A stretch of 64,000 nucleotides of DNA from an uncultured Verrucomicrobiota bacterium (GCA_964555235.1 CAZKRU010000005.1:2457-66456); one strand, 5' to 3'. Positions 3,021 to 38,631 are shown, numbered from the stretch's first letter. The notes: generated by a model from the letters alone, not told the origin. A program made the numbers and translations.

Positions 3021-3038
3021 AGGGTTACACCCCATAGG
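3021..3038 (+). promoter_or_regulatory. Copy a of conserved upstream motif (AGGGTTACACCCCATAGG)
   Basis: This 18-mer is identical to copy c at 22930..22947. It ends 31 nt before the ATG at 3070, on the sense strand. Confidence 0.55.
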
Positions 3039-3069
3039 CCTTCTCTTCATTCGAGCCTACTTTGGGTTC

Positions 3070-3414
3070 ATGACAAAAACACTTCGATCCTTGGCATTTA
3101 TGGTTATTGCAATTGGAACGATTCTCTTCGTGACTCGCGCTTCTGCGGAGTCTTCGTTGAGTATTCGTATCGGGCCGCAAGCTCCTCCGCATCACGAGGA
3201 CTATCGTCGGTGGGAAAGTCCGCATCGTACGGCAGTTTGGATTCCCGGACATAACGAATGGAGACAAGCGCCGGGACAGAGACATGGACGTTATGTTTGG
3301 GTCGGCGGTTATTATGCGTACCCTTCTCATAAAGGAAGCCAATGGGTAGCTCCTCGATATTCGCGCGATCGTGATGGTAACTACAACTATCGTGCCCCTT
3401 ATTGGACGAAATAA
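3070..3414 (+). CDS. Small secreted W/Y/R-rich protein (YXWGXW-repeat-like)
   Basis: The internal ATG gives a signal-peptide-like start, 'MTKTLRSLAFMVIAIGTILFVTRASA'. The mature part has 'RYVWVGGYY' and 'QWVAPRY' motifs. The ORF opens at 2998, so the start is uncertain. Confidence 0.5.
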   Translation: MTKTLRSLAFMVIAIGTILFVTRASAESSLSIRIGPQAPPHHEDYRRWESPHRTAVWIPGHNEWRQAPGQRHGRYVWVGGYYAYPSHKGSQWVAPRYSRDRDGNYNYRAPYWTK

Positions 3415-3467
3415 AGGTTATTTTACCCCAGTAGTGTCATGATGTTAATTATTAGATTAACGAGATA

Positions 3468-3498
3468 GGGGGGAGTGGGGAGTGGGGAGGATGAGGGG
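3468..3498 (+). other. G-quadruplex-forming tract (GGGGGG-AGT-GGGG-AGT-GGGG-AGGATGA-GGGG)
   Basis: Four G-runs of at least 4 with loops of 3, 3 and 7 nt. It lies in the spacer between two convergent genes. Confidence 0.5.
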
Positions 3499-3565
3499 AG
3501 GAATTTATCGGGATGGTTGGCGAGGCCTTTACCGTACATCGAGGGCGCCAATGGGTTGGAAAAAA

Positions 3566-4339
3566 CTATTGAGCGGTCCAGCCGCCGTCGATAGTGATGG
3601 TTTGCCCGGTGACGTTGCGAGCGAGCGGGCTGATGAGGTATTCGATAGCGGCGGCGATCTCTTCGGAGGTGATGAAGGCTTTTTTGGGCATCGGTTCAAG
3701 CATGACTTTTTGGATGACTTCTTCTTCAGAAATTCCGCGAATTCGGGCTTGGTCTTTGATCTGTTTCTCAACGAGGGGGGTCTGAATATAAGCAGGGCAG
3801 ATGGTGTTTGTCGTGATTTCGGCATCGGCGGTTTCGAGTGCCAGCACTTTTGAAAAACCGATCAAGGCATGTTTTGCCGTGACGTAAGCGGATTTTCCAG
3901 GTGAGGCGACAAGGGAATGGAGTGAGCCGATATGGATCAGTCGACCAAAACCGCGCTCACGCATTCCAGGAAGTGCGGCACGGCTCATGAGAAAGGTTCC
4001 TTTTAAGGCGACATCCATAATTTGATCCCATTTGACCGTTGGAAATTCCTCCAATCGTGCGACATGCTGCATTCCCGCGTTGTTGATCAAGACCTCTACC
4101 GGTCGATCCTTGAGTTTTTTCCAGAGCTGCTCAATTTCAGTTTCGGAGGTGACGTCCAAGGCATGCGCTTCTGCGTTTCCCCCGGCTTTTTGAATTTGAG
4201 CGGCGGTCTCCTCGGCGGCGGCGAGATCGCGATCGGTTGAAAAAATGATGCCGTTCTGTTGCGCCAAGGCGAGGGCGAGTCCGCGGCCGAGTCCACTGCC
4301 GGCTCCAGTAATCAGAATGTTGCGTTTGGGAGAGTTCAT
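3566..4339 (-). CDS. bdhA: 3-hydroxybutyrate dehydrogenase (classical SDR)
   Basis: Rossmann motif 'TGAGSGLGRGLA', catalytic 'YVTAKHAL' (YxxxK), and a C-terminal '...TIDGGWTAQ' typical of BDH enzymes. It overlaps the upstream ligase gene by 4 nt. Confidence 0.75.
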   Translation of the reverse strand: MNSPKRNILITGAGSGLGRGLALALAQQNGIIFSTDRDLAAAEETAAQIQKAGGNAEAHALDVTSETEIEQLWKKLKDRPVEVLINNAGMQHVARLEEFPTVKWDQIMDVALKGTFLMSRAALPGMRERGFGRLIHIGSLHSLVASPGKSAYVTAKHALIGFSKVLALETADAEITTNTICPAYIQTPLVEKQIKDQARIRGISEEEVIQKVMLEPMPKKAFITSEEIAAAIEYLISPLARNVTGQTITIDGGWTAQ

Positions 4340-37205: not shown

Positions 37206-37243
37206 AAAAAAAACACCCCCTGTATGTTGCAGGGGGTGTTTTA
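37206..37243 (-). terminator. Rho-independent terminator of the SYLF-OMP operon
   Basis: On the minus strand: AACACCCCCTG-CAACATA-CAGGGGGTGTT followed by TTTTTTT. It begins about 20 nt after the stop at 37264. Confidence 0.8.
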
Positions 37244-37263
37244 ACTGAGGAGGAATTTAAATC

Positions 37264-37857
37264 TTAGAAGGCAAAACGGAGTCCTACTCGAGGAAGCAGG
37301 TAGTCGTTGGTCTTATCCGTTAAGACGTAGCGAGCATCGGCAAACATACCGACGTGCTCCGTGAAACGAAACTCAACTCCTGCGCCGGCTTGTCCGCTGA
37401 CCTGAGTCGTTGGACCAAAATGACCTCCGGGGCCAATAAAGGCGTAAGGAGCCAGATGCATTTCTTCAATCGGGTAACGAAAGATCAGATTCCCGGAGAC
37501 GGCATAGACGACATCGTCTTTGCTGCCATCCCAAGCATATCCATCCAGTCCGACTCCGATGTATTTGGTGAAGAAGTAATTGACTCCCAATCCTCCTCCG
37601 AAATCATCATTGTAGAGTCCAGGCTTCAGCGTCGTCGCATAAAGTCCAAAGACATCGAAGCTGAGCTCGTTGCTTCGAAAGAGATCTTTTTCGACCTCCA
37701 AGTACGAGGACTTCAATTCTTTTGAGTAATCTCGGTGATCGACGATTTTTTTAGGATCTTCGGTTCGTGCTTTGACTTGAGGCGTGCTATCTGCCTGTAG
37801 GGGCAGGATGACCGCAGCCGATAAAAGCAGCGACATCAGGATGATGGTTTTTTTCAT
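37264..37857 (-). CDS. Small outer-membrane beta-barrel protein
   Basis: Signal peptide 'MKKTIILMSLLLSAAVILPLQA', alternating beta-strand pattern, and a C-terminal '...RVGLRFAF' aromatic terminus. Confidence 0.7.
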   Translation of the reverse strand: MKKTIILMSLLLSAAVILPLQADSTPQVKARTEDPKKIVDHRDYSKELKSSYLEVEKDLFRSNELSFDVFGLYATTLKPGLYNDDFGGGLGVNYFFTKYIGVGLDGYAWDGSKDDVVYAVSGNLIFRYPIEEMHLAPYAFIGPGGHFGPTTQVSGQAGAGVEFRFTEHVGMFADARYVLTDKTNDYLLPRVGLRFAF

Positions 37858-37893
37858 ATTGGGGTTCTTTCAGTTGGGTTTTATAAATTCGAT

Positions 37894-38580
37894 TTAGCTC
37901 TTGGCGTCGAGAAGTTCGTAGAGGTGATGCGCCGTTTTGGGTGATTTGACTTTACCGTTCAGAATATCCTTGGCGTGAACGTCAGCGCCGTAGGCTTTCT
38001 GATTGATTTCATCTTTACGTTCCACGGAGGTTCCTCCAAACGTCGCTCCTCCAAAAACTCCACTGGAATCTTTGTAAACGACATATTCATCACGTTCGAT
38101 ATGACTCGTGGTGGTTCGAGTGGTGGTCGTTGCGGATCCCGCGGTTCCCGTTGCGGTCATATTCCAGTCGACTTTACCGGCAGAGGTAAACCGCTTCACG
38201 GCGGCATCCGTATTCAAGATGACAATGTAACGGGTTTCGGTGAATCCGAGTTGCGCGCCAAGACTGGCTCCGCCCATATTAAAAGCCGAAGGTGCGGTCC
38301 ATGACGGAAAGGGGATCGATTTATCGCGCAACACCACAATTCCCTCGCCCCCTTGTCCACCGACTCCAATCGCTGCCTTCGTGACCGTAAAAATCGCAAC
38401 CCCCTTGGCTTGCTTTCGGACGCGCAACGGAATTGACTCATTGGATCCTTGTTTTTGTTCGAGGATTTTCGTCGCGCTTTGAATGCGCTCTTCCATGTCC
38501 TCAGCTTGCAGCAAGGAGTTCGGAATTAATAAAAGCAGCATTGATGCGAGCGGAAGAAGTTTTAACAAGGTTTTTTTCAT
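37894..38580 (-). CDS. Secreted SYLF (Ysc84/DUF500) lipid-binding domain protein
   Basis: Signal peptide, then 'AKGVAIFTVTKAAIGVGGQGGEGIVVLR...WTAPSAFNMGGASLGAQLG', the typical SYLF core. Confidence 0.7.
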   Translation of the reverse strand: MKKTLLKLLPLASMLLLLIPNSLLQAEDMEERIQSATKILEQKQGSNESIPLRVRKQAKGVAIFTVTKAAIGVGGQGGEGIVVLRDKSIPFPSWTAPSAFNMGGASLGAQLGFTETRYIVILNTDAAVKRFTSAGKVDWNMTATGTAGSATTTTRTTTSHIERDEYVVYKDSSGVFGGATFGGTSVERKDEINQKAYGADVHAKDILNGKVKSPKTAHHLYELLDAKS

Positions 38581-38610
38581 GTCGTCAGCTTACTGAAGCA
38601 TGAAATGAAT

Positions 38611-38631
38611 CCTATGGGGTCTATACCCCAC
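38611..38631 (-). promoter_or_regulatory. Copy h of conserved upstream motif (minus strand: GTGGGGTATAGACCCCATAGG)
   Basis: 30 nt upstream of the ATG at 38580, in sense orientation for that gene. Confidence 0.5.

Follow-up and report, generated by a model that had tools for sequence, protein, structure and literature searches.

A conserved promoter motif that probably marks a general stress regulon in Verrucomicrobiota and related phyla

Genes and promoters of the window

Nine copies of a 20-nt motif are found in the window, by which we mean the whole stretch of 64,000 nt from an uncultured Verrucomicrobiota bacterium that was analysed here. The promoters containing these copies, with their predicted start sites and the genes behind them, are listed below, together with the score of each site in the PWM scan.

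3018..3070, + strand: promoter 1; site AGTAGGGTTACACCCCATAG at 3018-3037, -10 box TACTTT at 3058-3063, PWM 24.3; predicted start site 3070, the A of the ATG (leaderless)
3070..3414, + strand: small secreted protein, 114 aa, gene of promoter 1; no Pfam or NCBIfam family
22226..22279, + strand: promoter 2; palindromic class B site ATGGGGCAAACACCCCATAG at 22226-22245, -10 box TATTGT at 22267-22272, PWM 27.8; predicted start site ~22279
22317..22514, + strand: Thivi_2564-family membrane protein, 65 aa (NCBIfam NF041949, 72 bits); predicted leader ~38 nt
22927..22979, + strand: promoter 3; site CATAGGGTTACACCCCATAG at 22927-22946, -10 box TAGCTT at 22967-22972, PWM 21.5; predicted start site ~22979
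23034..23267, + strand: small secreted protein, 77 aa from the ATG at 23034, gene of promoter 3
24609..24661, - strand: promoter 4; site GGTAGGGTTATCCCCCATTG at 24661-24642, weak -10 box CATTCT at 24621-24616, PWM 18.6; predicted start site ~24609
23728..24585, - strand: secreted 3D-domain protein, 285 aa (Pfam 3D, 29 bits), gene of promoter 4
24672..24724, + strand: promoter 5, divergent from promoter 4; site AGGGGGGTAACACCCCATGG at 24672-24691, -10 box TATTGT at 24712-24717, PWM 29.3; predicted start site ~24724
24729..25034, + strand: Cys-rich protein, 101 aa, no significant family; predicted leader ~5 nt
25130..25183, + strand: promoter 6; class B site ATGGGGCGAATACCCCATAG at 25130-25149, -10 box TAGCTT at 25171-25176, PWM 23.8; predicted start site 25183, the A of the ATG (leaderless)
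25183..27777, + strand: hybrid sensor kinase with three PAS, HisKA, HATPase, and receiver domains (Pfam)
27923..27974, + strand: promoter 7; site AGGAGGGTTATACCCCATAG at 27923-27942, -10 box TAGATT at 27962-27967, PWM 27.5; predicted start site ~27974
27978..28187, + strand: dodecin, 69 aa (Pfam Dodecin, 95.5 bits; NCBIfam, 101 bits); predicted leader ~4 nt
31641..31693, + strand: promoter 8; site AGTAGGGTTACACCCCATGG at 31641-31660, -10 box TAAGGT at 31681-31686, PWM 25.2; predicted start site ~31693
31696-32118, + strand: ohr, first gene behind promoter 8 (this and the next five by Pfam and NCBIfam)
32176-32379, + strand: csbD
32404-33843, + strand: cardiolipin-synthase-like PLD
33840-34679, + strand: mlaE
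34676-35443, + strand: ABC ATPase
35447-36115, + strand: mlaD
38580..38631, - strand: promoter 9; class B site GTGGGGTATAGACCCCATAG at 38631-38612, -10 box TAAGCT at 38592-38587, PWM 22.7; predicted start site 38580, the A of the ATG (leaderless)
37894-38580, - strand: SYLF/Ysc84 lipoprotein (Pfam Ysc84, 88.5 bits), gene of promoter 9
37264-37857, - strand: OMP-like protein, 197 aa, following the SYLF/Ysc84 gene

Family matches confirm the identities that the initial annotation had proposed for the 3D-domain, dodecin, Ohr-family, CsbD, Ysc84/SYLF, hybrid PAS kinase, and Thivi_2564 proteins. The six genes from ohr to mlaD (31696..36115, + strand) probably form one operon, as judged from their spacing, because they lie on one strand with short gaps or overlaps. 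Homologues of the hybrid sensor kinase are found near motif sites in loci L065, L136, and others, homologues of the 197-aa OMP-like protein recur in motif loci, and OMP_b-brl proteins are present among the motif-downstream ORFs of other genomes. At promoter 3, an in-frame GTG is found at 22980, where transcription is predicted to start.

Detection of the motif

The nine copies, reported in the initial annotation as sense-oriented elements upstream of start codons, are all present at the coordinates given there. The strict pattern AGGGTTAYACCCCATRG has four exact matches in the window and six when up to three mismatches are allowed (0.20 expected), and the core CCCCATRG has 10 matches against 3.5 expected. 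Two of these core matches, at 56200 (- strand) and 59707 (+ strand), lie inside a 2967-aa ORF without the G-rich left arm and are attributed to chance. A PWM trained on sites found independently in metagenome loci and then run on the window returned exactly these nine sites, with scores of 18.6-29.3, plus the reverse reads of two palindromic sites; shuffled windows gave no match at a score of at least 14. All nine sites are intergenic and each is oriented towards the adjoining gene, with gaps from motif end to ATG of 32, 71, 87, 56, 37, 33, 35, 35, and 31 nt, which agree within 1 nt with the earlier figures wherever one was given. The degenerate tenth copy suggested at 21892-21909 scores below 10 and is not a site; this stretch begins 15 nt past a tRNA-Arg(CCT) gene (21804-21877).

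Promoter architecture

When 138 unique strict-motif instances taken from other genomes are profiled from -80 to +96, with the A of AGGGTTA as 0, only one other block proves to be conserved, T37/A38/T42 (0.52, 0.96, and 1.04 bits). This block is a TAnnnT -10 box lying ~20 nt downstream of the motif end, which the initial annotation missed together with the predicted leaderless state of many targets. It stands at the expected spacing in eight of the nine window sites and at offsets 36-38 in 92 of 140 instances from other genomes (~5 expected), with offsets 36, 37, and 38 occurring 9, 71, and 13 times, respectively. As had been claimed earlier, no conserved box precedes the motif: between -80 and -5 the information content never rises above 0.21 bit among the 138 instances, and the flanks past the motif and the -10 box carry no information. 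The -35 position is occupied by TRG(C) only.

The ATGs of ORFs with a length of at least 50 aa are concentrated at offsets 47-53 (29 of 130 instances). A pyrimidine is found at position 48 in 80% of instances, and a purine at position 49 in 66%. In the window, the genes at 3070, 25183, and 38580 have a -10 box, 6 nt, and then the ATG, and 9-11 nt separate the -10 box from the ATG at 24729, 27978, and 31696. The predicted start site thus falls on the ATG or within 5 nt of it at six window genes, and the spacing of 30-37 nt between motif and start codon follows from this position. With transcription predicted to begin 7 nt past the -10 box, ~32 nt past the 3' end of the motif, the motif would span ~-52 to -33 with its dyad centre near -43.5, and its last bases, TRG, would coincide with the expected beginning of a -35 hexamer, at a distance of 17 bp from the -10 box. 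The mRNAs of many targets would then be leaderless or nearly so, starting at the start codon or a few bases earlier.

It is very unlikely that the motif is itself a -10 element, either of the sigB/sigF type (GGGTTA being similar to GGGTAT) or of the sigma32 type (CCCCATnT), with transcription starting within or just past it. Group-3 sigma factors use GGGTAT as their -10 box, CCCCAT is characteristic of the sigma32 -10 element, and CsbD, YflT, and Ohr are sigB-regulon families in Bacillus. However, neither GTTT nor TTGAAA is found at a fixed upstream distance, the -80 to -5 region staying at or below 0.21 bit; TAnnnT, which is tied to the motif and not to the start codon, would be left without a role; and the leaderless geometry of TAnnnT, 6 nt, and ATG fits a start site at the ATG. 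More specifically, a sigB/sigF-type promoter was rejected, as there is no GTTT-type -35 box 12-17 nt upstream of the GGGTAT-like box (n=138, at most 0.21 bit), and a sigma32 (RpoH) promoter was rejected because CCCCAT is present while the positions 13-15 nt upstream are the left arm of the motif or uninformative, with no CTTGAAA. Boxes of the EcfG type (GGAAC-N16-17-CGTT) are likewise missing from the -80 to +96 profile of the 138 sites.

Distribution, regulon content, and symmetry of the motif

The 17-mer is found in more than 120 genome loci, and 97 of 120 loci bearing it (81%) carry a PVC label. It recurs in Verrucomicrobia, Lentisphaerae, Kiritimatiellae, and Planctomycetes, upstream of BON/OsmY, CsbD, Ohr/OsmC, PRC-barrel, YflT, and DUF5670 genes. 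The 131 motif-downstream ORFs include BON (13), Ice_binding (7), CsbD (4), OsmC (3), PRC (3), DUF5670 (3), and YflT (2) families, as well as PAS/HisKA_3 kinases and receiver proteins. The proposal that the motif is a stress-regulon signal is supported by its position before classic general-stress families across the PVC superphylum. It is not equally common inside genes, which had been named as grounds for refutation: 18% of motif sites lie inside called ORFs, compared with 75% of random positions.

Two versions of the motif can be told apart, class A GGTAGGGTTAYACCCCATRG and class B ATGGGGTGAACACCCCATRG, of which class B is closer to a palindrome. Sites of class B (ATGGGGTG-nn-CACCCCAT) form near-perfect dyads, with 52 palindromic pairs. 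Class A is the majority form (195 sites) and is asymmetric, as its left arm, itself very strongly conserved, must be moved by 1 bp to fit the dyad. Constraint is much stronger on the promoter-proximal half, CACCCCATRG, than on the distal half, and the proximal half extends into the -35 position.

The GGGG and CCCC arms can pair, and motif 24-mers have predicted folds of -3.9 to -12.4 kcal/mol, as might be expected of a transcribed RNA hairpin in the 5'-UTR or of a dispersed REP-like repeat. Either origin is extremely unlikely, however, because the stem register depends on the class (4 bp with a 3-nt loop vs 6 bp with a 6-nt loop), strict sequence conservation is seen in place of compensatory change, and the motif lies upstream of the predicted start site with flanks that are uninformative beyond the -10 box. 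In addition, the sites are intergenic, oriented, and placed before the same gene families in different phyla, and an Rfam search of the window at the gathering threshold matched a tRNA only. Three mechanisms had been offered in the initial annotation: the operator or promoter element fits, the 5'-UTR hairpin is rejected by the position of the motif upstream of the predicted start site and by the inconsistent stem register, and the alternative sigma factor, possible but unlikely, finds no genomic support. A dispersed repeat (REP- or MITE-like) is ruled out by the intergenic bias, the fixed -10 spacing, the start-codon pile-up, and the uninformative flanks.

The linked two-component operon

In relatives, the motif is strongly linked in both directions to a conserved operon, X-HK-RR, encoding an RsbU_N pseudo-kinase, an RsbU_N-HisKA_3 kinase, and a NarL/LuxR-type response regulator. 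One orthologous response regulator is present in nine of 120 loci chosen solely by the motif, against ~0.2 expected for any single-copy gene, and 80 metagenome loci (578 kb) chosen solely by a regulator orthologue contain 154 motif matches against ~1.6 expected. In L074, L112, L052, L103, and L060, the motif immediately precedes the operon or the regulator gene itself. Where enough upstream sequence is available, 15 of 27 loci carry a site on the strand of the regulator gene and no more than 3.5 kb upstream of it, mostly at ~-1.9 to -2.0 kb, which corresponds to the operon promoter; further sites are found just past the regulator stop codon.

The regulator orthologues (Response_reg and GerE domains) are 62-85% identical with an invariant helix, KTVEKHR, and come mainly from Verrucomicrobiota-labelled MAGs, with one from a Lentisphaerae-labelled MAG (L095). 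Paralogue X is kinase-like without an ATPase domain, and matches RsbU_N (PF08673) at 29.8 bits (cut-off 25.5) and HisKA_3; the operon kinase, which also has HisKA_3, matches RsbU_N at 24.0 bits, just below this cut-off. The window does not encode an orthologue of the regulator, its nearest protein being a 34%-identical paralogue (9058-9783) with no motif nearby.

We consider it reasonably likely that the motif is an activator element of sigma70-type promoters, read by this autoregulated NarL/LuxR-family regulator. Its most likely role is that of an activator site in, or immediately next to, the -35 region. The promoters have a TAnnnT -10 box and no consensus -35, and the motif would serve as their upstream recognition element. 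A dimer of the conserved, uncharacterised response regulator would bind the motif and act as a class-II-type activator, contacting RNA polymerase at the -35 region. The X-HK-RR operon promoter itself carries the motif, and positive autoregulation is thereby implied.

Several features would sit less easily with such an activator. The asymmetric class A form with its conserved left arm would be unusual for a simple homodimer site, and the constrained proximal half reaches the -35 position as might a sigma-recognised element. In regulator-bearing L131 and L136, CCGAAT replaces CCCCAT while the recognition helix is unchanged, and some regulator loci, such as L180, have no site in the DNA available; both may count against it. 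The regulator operon could simply be a regulon member, and the window holds only the 34%-identical paralogue.

It is possible, although unlikely, that a dedicated PVC alternative sigma factor recognises the motif, or CACCCCATRG at the least, as its -35-region element and TAnnnT as its -10 box, in which case no activator would be needed. The general stress regulons of other phyla are sigma-driven (sigB, RpoS, and EcfG), the spacing to the -10 box is rigid at ±1 bp, the proximal half is nearly invariant as it runs into the -35 position, and CCGAAT occurs with an unchanged regulator helix. However, the 20-bp conserved block reaches -52, far past a -35 hexamer, the true dyads of class B suggest a dimer, and TAnnnT is a -10 box of the housekeeping type. 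Moreover, sigma factors are not enriched: only six ECF-type ORFs are found in 1.52 Mb of loci, none among recurrent neighbours, in contrast to the strongly linked two-component operon.

It is rather improbable that the motif is a repressor operator, or the site of another transcription factor, lying over the -35 with the NarL-type operon as merely one target. Overlap with the -35 position is also classic for repressors, the link to the regulator is genomic only, and several signalling genes (hybrid kinases and receiver proteins) are themselves targets. Nonetheless, with no -35 hexamer beyond TRG these promoters would be expected to have little strength unless an activator assists them, the ~1.5 Mb of linked loci contain no other recurrent DNA-binding protein, and the invariant HTH helix of the regulator parallels the invariance of the motif.

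Comparison with known systems

The regulator profile matches VraR (E 1.7e-52), DesR, NarL, and DevR across receiver and HTH. VraR/LiaR, DesR, and NarL are the closest solved structures by sequence and are family-level relatives only; to our knowledge, their operators do not resemble GGGT-N3/4-ACCCCAT. Lux-box (LuxR/TraR) and NarL-family class-II-like promoters have an inverted repeat of 18-20 bp with its centre at around -42 to -44, a -10 box with no consensus -35, a GerE/LuxR-type HTH, and an autoregulated regulator operon, and DosR/DevR of Mycobacterium uses a G-rich dyad in a stress or dormancy regulon under a HisKA_3 kinase. The PVC promoters are similar in having a 20-mer, a near-perfect dyad in its class B form, centred near -43.5 from the predicted start site, a -10 box without a consensus -35, and, in relatives, since the window has no orthologue, a linked GerE-HTH regulator with the motif at its own operon promoter. 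They differ from lux-box and DosR promoters in motif sequence, in a commonest form that is asymmetric with the left arm shifted by 1 bp, in a much more constrained proximal half, in the predicted leaderless state of many targets, and in their spread over PVC phyla. Unlike DosR-type sensors (GAF/haem), the PVC kinases carry RsbU_N or pair with KaiBC or CheR/CheB-PAS modules.

General stress responses are governed by the sigma factors sigB in Firmicutes and RpoS in Gammaproteobacteria. The regulons of sigB, RpoS, and EcfG share with the PVC targets CsbD, Ohr/OsmC, BON/OsmY, YflT, PRC-barrel, dodecin, and small membrane proteins, and in both cases the regulatory locus itself belongs to the regulon. 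However, each of those regulons depends on an alternative sigma factor that has -35 and -10 boxes of its own (GTTT/GGGTAT; GGAAC-N16-17-CGTT), whereas the PVC -10 box is housekeeping-like and the PVC element, predicted to lie at -52 to -33, has dyad character and is linked to a two-component response regulator. The EcfG general stress system of Alphaproteobacteria is sigma-driven (PMC3892343, PMC7083833).

Stressosome outputs in which RsbU_N is fused to a histidine kinase have been described in some Proteobacteria, such as Vibrio vulnificus (PMC9237108, via PMC12143880). The PVC kinase and its truncated paralogue resemble these outputs in carrying RsbU_N before HisKA_3 and in having a NarL-type partner. 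Unlike stressosome modules, no rsbR/S/T genes (STAS/RsbT-like families) are found among the 25 commonest Pfam families listed for 148 neighbour ORFs within ~6.5 kb of the PVC operons (25 loci). No DNA target motif or regulon is noted for the proteobacterial RsbU_N-kinase systems in the parts of PMC12143880 that concern them.

No description of the motif was found in the literature. We propose that the motif is probably the mark of a general stress regulon, so far undescribed, under the control of a two-component response regulator. Such a regulon would be conserved in Verrucomicrobiota, Lentisphaerota, Kiritimatiellota, and some Planctomycetota, and its targets would include BON/OsmY, CsbD, Ohr/OsmC, dodecin, PRC-barrel, YflT, DUF5670, MlaA, and envelope proteins.

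Motif Sites and Promoter Geometry

The nine copies of a roughly 20-bp motif reported in the initial annotation were all found in the window where they had been placed. The strict 17-mer AGGGTTAYACCCCATRG matches exactly at four places in the window and, when up to three mismatches are allowed, at six, compared with 0.20 expected from dinucleotide shuffles of the window; CCCCATRG occurs ten times compared with 3.5 expected. Two of these occurrences, at 56200 (minus strand) and 59707 (plus strand), lie within a 2967-aa ORF, miss the G-rich left arm, and look like chance. A matrix scan (PWM) was performed with a matrix trained on metagenome-locus sites found independently of the window, and it returned exactly the nine sites (scores 18.6–29.3) and the reverse reads of two palindromic ones; shuffles gave none at 14 or more. 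A supposed tenth copy at 21892–21909, 15 nt after a tRNA-Arg(CCT) gene (21804–21877), fails to score with this matrix. A weak motif-like match, GGGGGGTAACCACCCATTG, at 539 on the minus strand (score 10.2) has a correctly spaced TATTGT and lies antisense within an AraC-family ORF (325–1212); it may be a chance match or an internal antisense promoter.

When 138 unique instances were aligned on the motif, with the A of AGGGTTA as position 0, no position from -80 to -5 was conserved (each at most 0.21 bit). The motif itself gained a GGT at its 5' end and a C at its 3' end, and the single further conserved block comprised T37, A38, and T42, which form a TAnnnT -10 hexamer. TANNNT is present at offsets 36–38 in 92 of 140 instances, compared with approximately 5 expected from base composition. 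In the window, all but one of the nine sites have it, the exception having CATTCT. The final TRG(C) of the motif falls exactly at the expected start of a -35 hexamer, 17 bp before the -10 box. At position 48, 80% of instances have a pyrimidine, and at position 49, 66% have a purine, a pattern like that of a transcription start site. ATGs at the head of ORFs of 50 aa or more cluster at offsets 47–53 in 29 of 130 cases, the others being scattered over 60–150; in the window, the ATGs at 3070, 25183, and 38580 lie exactly 6 nt after the -10 box and those at 24729, 27978, and 31696 lie 9–11 nt after it. Judged from these sequence patterns, the motif would occupy approximately -52 to -33 relative to a start site predicted at 7 ± 1 nt beyond the TAnnnT box, some 32 nt from the 3' end of the motif, and the transcripts would be leaderless or nearly so. 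The spacing of 30–37 nt before the start codon, described in the annotation for most copies, is accounted for by this geometry. Site position is tied to the -10 box and not to the start codon.

Both a SigB-type promoter and a sigma32-type -10 box, the latter suggested by the likeness of CCCCAT, were considered and rejected because no -35 box lies upstream and a fixed TAnnnT box lies downstream. The sites are also intergenic, since called ORFs (greedy calls) contain 18% of them compared with 75% of random positions; the count of open frames of at least 120 codons covering the motif gives no information in these GC-rich genomes. An RNA hairpin or a REP element was rejected on four grounds, namely the position of the motif, stem registers that do not agree, the lack of any Rfam match, and a distribution that is intergenic and oriented.

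The motif occurs in two forms. Class A, GGTAGGGTTAYACCCCATRG, is the majority form, asymmetric and very strongly conserved, and class B, ATGGGGTGAACACCCCATRG, is a near-perfect dyad (ATGGGGTG-nn-CACCCCAT). Among 52 palindromic pairs, the -10 box is found on one side only in 35 and on both sides in none. The half nearer the promoter, CACCCCATRG, hardly varies (CCCCAT in 247 cases vs. CCCCAC in 8) and is somewhat akin to a sigma-recognised element.

At promoter 2 (site 22226–22245), the predicted start site coincides with the ATG of a 15-codon ORF, MIKINRFQNGDHSCL (22279–22326), and the stop of this ORF overlaps the beginning of the Thivi_2564 gene (ATG 22317). The short ORF could be leaderless and translationally coupled to the gene that follows.

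Regulon Content and Distribution

The genes downstream of the window sites proved to be as first described: a 3D-domain protein, dodecin, an Ohr-family peroxiredoxin followed by CsbD, a SYLF/Ysc84 lipoprotein, a hybrid PAS kinase, and a Thivi_2564-family membrane protein. Promoter 8 (site 31641–31660) probably drives ohr-csbD-cls-mlaEFD as one unit. The only recorded identical copy of the Ohr protein is from a 1.2-kb Logan contig, and BLASTN of the window against the retrieved loci produced no match. At 131 sites in other genomes, the first downstream ORFs include BON/OsmY-like proteins (13), ice-binding-like proteins (7), CsbD (4), OsmC/Ohr (3), PRC-barrel proteins (3), DUF5670 (3), YflT (2), and phosphoketolase (2), and PAS/HisKA_3 kinases and receiver proteins are found among them as well. 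This is the gene set typical of the sigB, RpoS, and EcfG general stress regulons, which it resembles in content (PMC3892343, PMC7083833).

The remaining genes of the window are PVC-like and include a sulfatase, RCC1 repeats, HA-domain proteins, and a cbb3 oxidase cluster. Several features were observed in passing:

25183–27777, hybrid kinase with a tandem-duplicated PAS module of about 142 aa, the copies identical at 132 of 142 protein positions, which suggests a recent, internal duplication
14102–16408, 768-aa ORF of the cbb3 cluster with COX1 (CcoN) and FixO (CcoO) domains, an apparent CcoN-CcoO fusion
11504–13637, opposite strand, a second, divergent COX1/FixO pair
47032–60049, adjacent giant ORFs of 1370 aa and 2967 aa, following RCC1-repeat and YadA-head-repeat proteins

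The strict 17-mer was searched for in 185,579 species-representative genomes and occurs at no fewer than 120 loci, among them loci of MAGs labelled Pedosphaera parvula, Prosthecobacter, and Chthoniobacter. Of the 120 matches listed, 97 carry the labels Verrucomicrobiota, Lentisphaerae/Victivallales, Kiritimatiellae, "PVC group", Sedimentisphaerales, or Pirellulales, and the other 23 are of two kinds, namely lone matches and verrucomicrobial-looking contigs in oddly labelled bins. The lone matches lack both the GGT prefix and the downstream box and probably arose by chance. From the 97 PVC-labelled loci and the nature of the other 23, the element is conserved almost base for base in several phyla of the PVC superphylum. 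Eight contigs from bins labelled as other phyla, six from "Bifidobacteriaceae" MAGs (loci L011, L055, L077, L096, L104, and L114), one "Solirubrobacteraceae" (L041), and one "Acidobacteriaceae" (L001), have promoters complete with motif and -10 box, along with stress genes of verrucomicrobial type, and the PRC-barrel protein of L001 is 78% identical to one from a Verrucomicrobiota MAG. These eight contigs are probably mis-binned or mislabelled.

Linked Regulator Operon

One orthologous response regulator is encoded in 9 of the 120 listed motif-chosen loci, while approximately 0.2 would be expected for a given single-copy gene. It consists of a receiver domain and a GerE/LuxR HTH; its orthologues from these loci are 62%–85% identical, their recognition helix, KTVEKHR, is invariant, and their C-terminus is IIESSVQLTIV. 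The usual context is an operon X-HK-RR, in which HK is an RsbU_N-HisKA_3-HATPase kinase and X is a paralogue of HK with RsbU_N and the dimerisation domain but without the ATPase. In five loci (L074, L112, L052, L103, and L060) either this operon or the regulator gene has the motif immediately 5' of it; the L103 orthologue is encoded at 6121–6798.

The linkage also holds in the reverse direction. In 80 metagenome loci selected solely for a regulator orthologue (67%–84% identity, 578 kb), 154 motif matches were found compared with approximately 1.6 expected. A same-strand site is present within 3.5 kb upstream of the regulator in 15 of the 27 loci with enough upstream DNA; most of these lie at approximately -1.9 to -2.0 kb, the position of the operon promoter, and further sites occur just 3' of the regulator stop. 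The operon promoters have a GATAnT-type -10 box at the same spacing. Some regulator loci have no motif site within the DNA examined.

It is possible that a dedicated alternative sigma factor reads the motif. However, this has no genomic support: when linked sigma factors were sought by iterated HMM searching, no more than six ECF-type ORFs came up in 1.52 Mb of these loci, and no sigma or STAS family recurs among neighbours. The recurrent neighbours are MlaA, BON, YflT, and KaiB/KaiC, and among the 25 commonest Pfam families of 148 neighbour ORFs within approximately 6.5 kb of the regulator gene in 25 loci there were no stressosome genes adjoining the RsbU_N kinase.

Among solved structures, VraR, DesR, NarL, and DevR are nearest to the regulator. 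A protein search with the regulator returned only close orthologues under generic database names and no divergent lineages of use for testing covariation. The window itself has no orthologue. Its own LuxR-type regulator and PAS-HisKA_3 kinase (9058–11237) were rejected as candidates: they share only about 34% and 30% identity, respectively, with the linked orthogroup, the regulator (9058–9783) being a paralogue, and neither has a motif nearby.

Two lineage-specific variants of the CACCCCATRG half were found. L131 and L136 carry CACCGAATAG (CCGAAT) while the regulator helix KTVEKHR is unchanged, the L131 site lying approximately 768 nt after the regulator start and the L136 sites at approximately 2221 and 2547. 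L187 and L189 have the helix KTV/ID-KHR and the variant CCCCACGG (CCCCAC). These variants could be informative on which factor touches the motif's right half. Of all the loci, L136 is the one most closely related to the window (hybrid kinase 78% identical).

In L125 (5555–10675) the gene order is KaiC-KaiB-KaiB-kinase-regulator and in L139 (5953–8979) KaiC-KaiB-regulator, in both cases replacing the RsbU_N pseudo-kinase; in other lineages a CheR/CheB-PAS protein of approximately 900 aa lies upstream of the regulator. The input modules of the one output regulator appear to be interchangeable. Truncated regulator relatives with receiver and linker, ending before the HTH, are found next to motif sites at L045:2585–3061 and L021:1368–1646; each could be a single-domain paralogue or a pseudogene.

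Discussion

We propose tentatively, and with a little less than even confidence, that the general stress response of the PVC phyla is a two-component system and not an alternative sigma factor, comprising a NarL-type regulator, one 20-bp element, phylum-spanning and largely leaderless promoters without a -35 box, and kinase input through RsbU_N, KaiBC, or CheR/CheB-PAS modules. The phosphorylated regulator would bind as a dimer to the dyad core GGGT-N3/4-ACCC of the 20-mer, centred at approximately -43.5, and would recruit a housekeeping-type RNA polymerase to promoters with a -10 box and a vestigial -35 box (TRG). Transcripts would often start at the start codon itself, the genes would be induced under stress, and the regulator would activate its own operon as well. 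The motif with its geometry and distribution, the gene content of the regulon, and the linkage to the regulator operon in both directions are observed, and the position of the start site, leaderless translation, regulator binding, and activation as opposed to repression are inferred from them. Input would reach the kinase via the RsbU_N partner-switching domain and, in some lineages, via the KaiBC or CheR/CheB-PAS modules. It is also possible that a repressor or another factor reads the motif; activation by the NarL-type regulator is the reading we prefer.

The promoters of the LuxR/TraR lux box and the DosR box have a working architecture similar to that proposed here, and the RsbU_N partner-switching domain is known from sigB signalling. 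Histidine kinases fused to RsbU_N are described, in PMC12143880 citing PMC9237108, as stressosome outputs in some Proteobacteria; in contrast, stressosome genes are not recurrent beside the PVC operons. Literature searches with the motif sequence gave unrelated primer matches or nothing at all, those on PVC stress regulation and start-site mapping gave nothing relevant and no general stress regulator, and no account of the motif, the regulon, or the regulator was found. What would be new is a stress regulon driven by a response regulator in phyla for which no such regulon is known to have been described.

Soil, water, and guts harbour abundant Verrucomicrobiota, Lentisphaerota, Kiritimatiellota, and Planctomycetota, and to our knowledge almost nothing is known of transcription control in these four phyla. 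The motif provides a directly testable cis-element with an exact promoter geometry and a regulon prediction for hundreds of uncultured genomes, and it points to a specific candidate for the master regulator and to the sensor kinases of that candidate. A further prediction is widespread use of leaderless mRNAs by the stress genes of these phyla, and the motif also ties the RsbU_N partner-switching domain to a two-component output. If the proposal is true, this system would represent a fourth architecture of the bacterial general stress response, beside sigB, RpoS, and EcfG.
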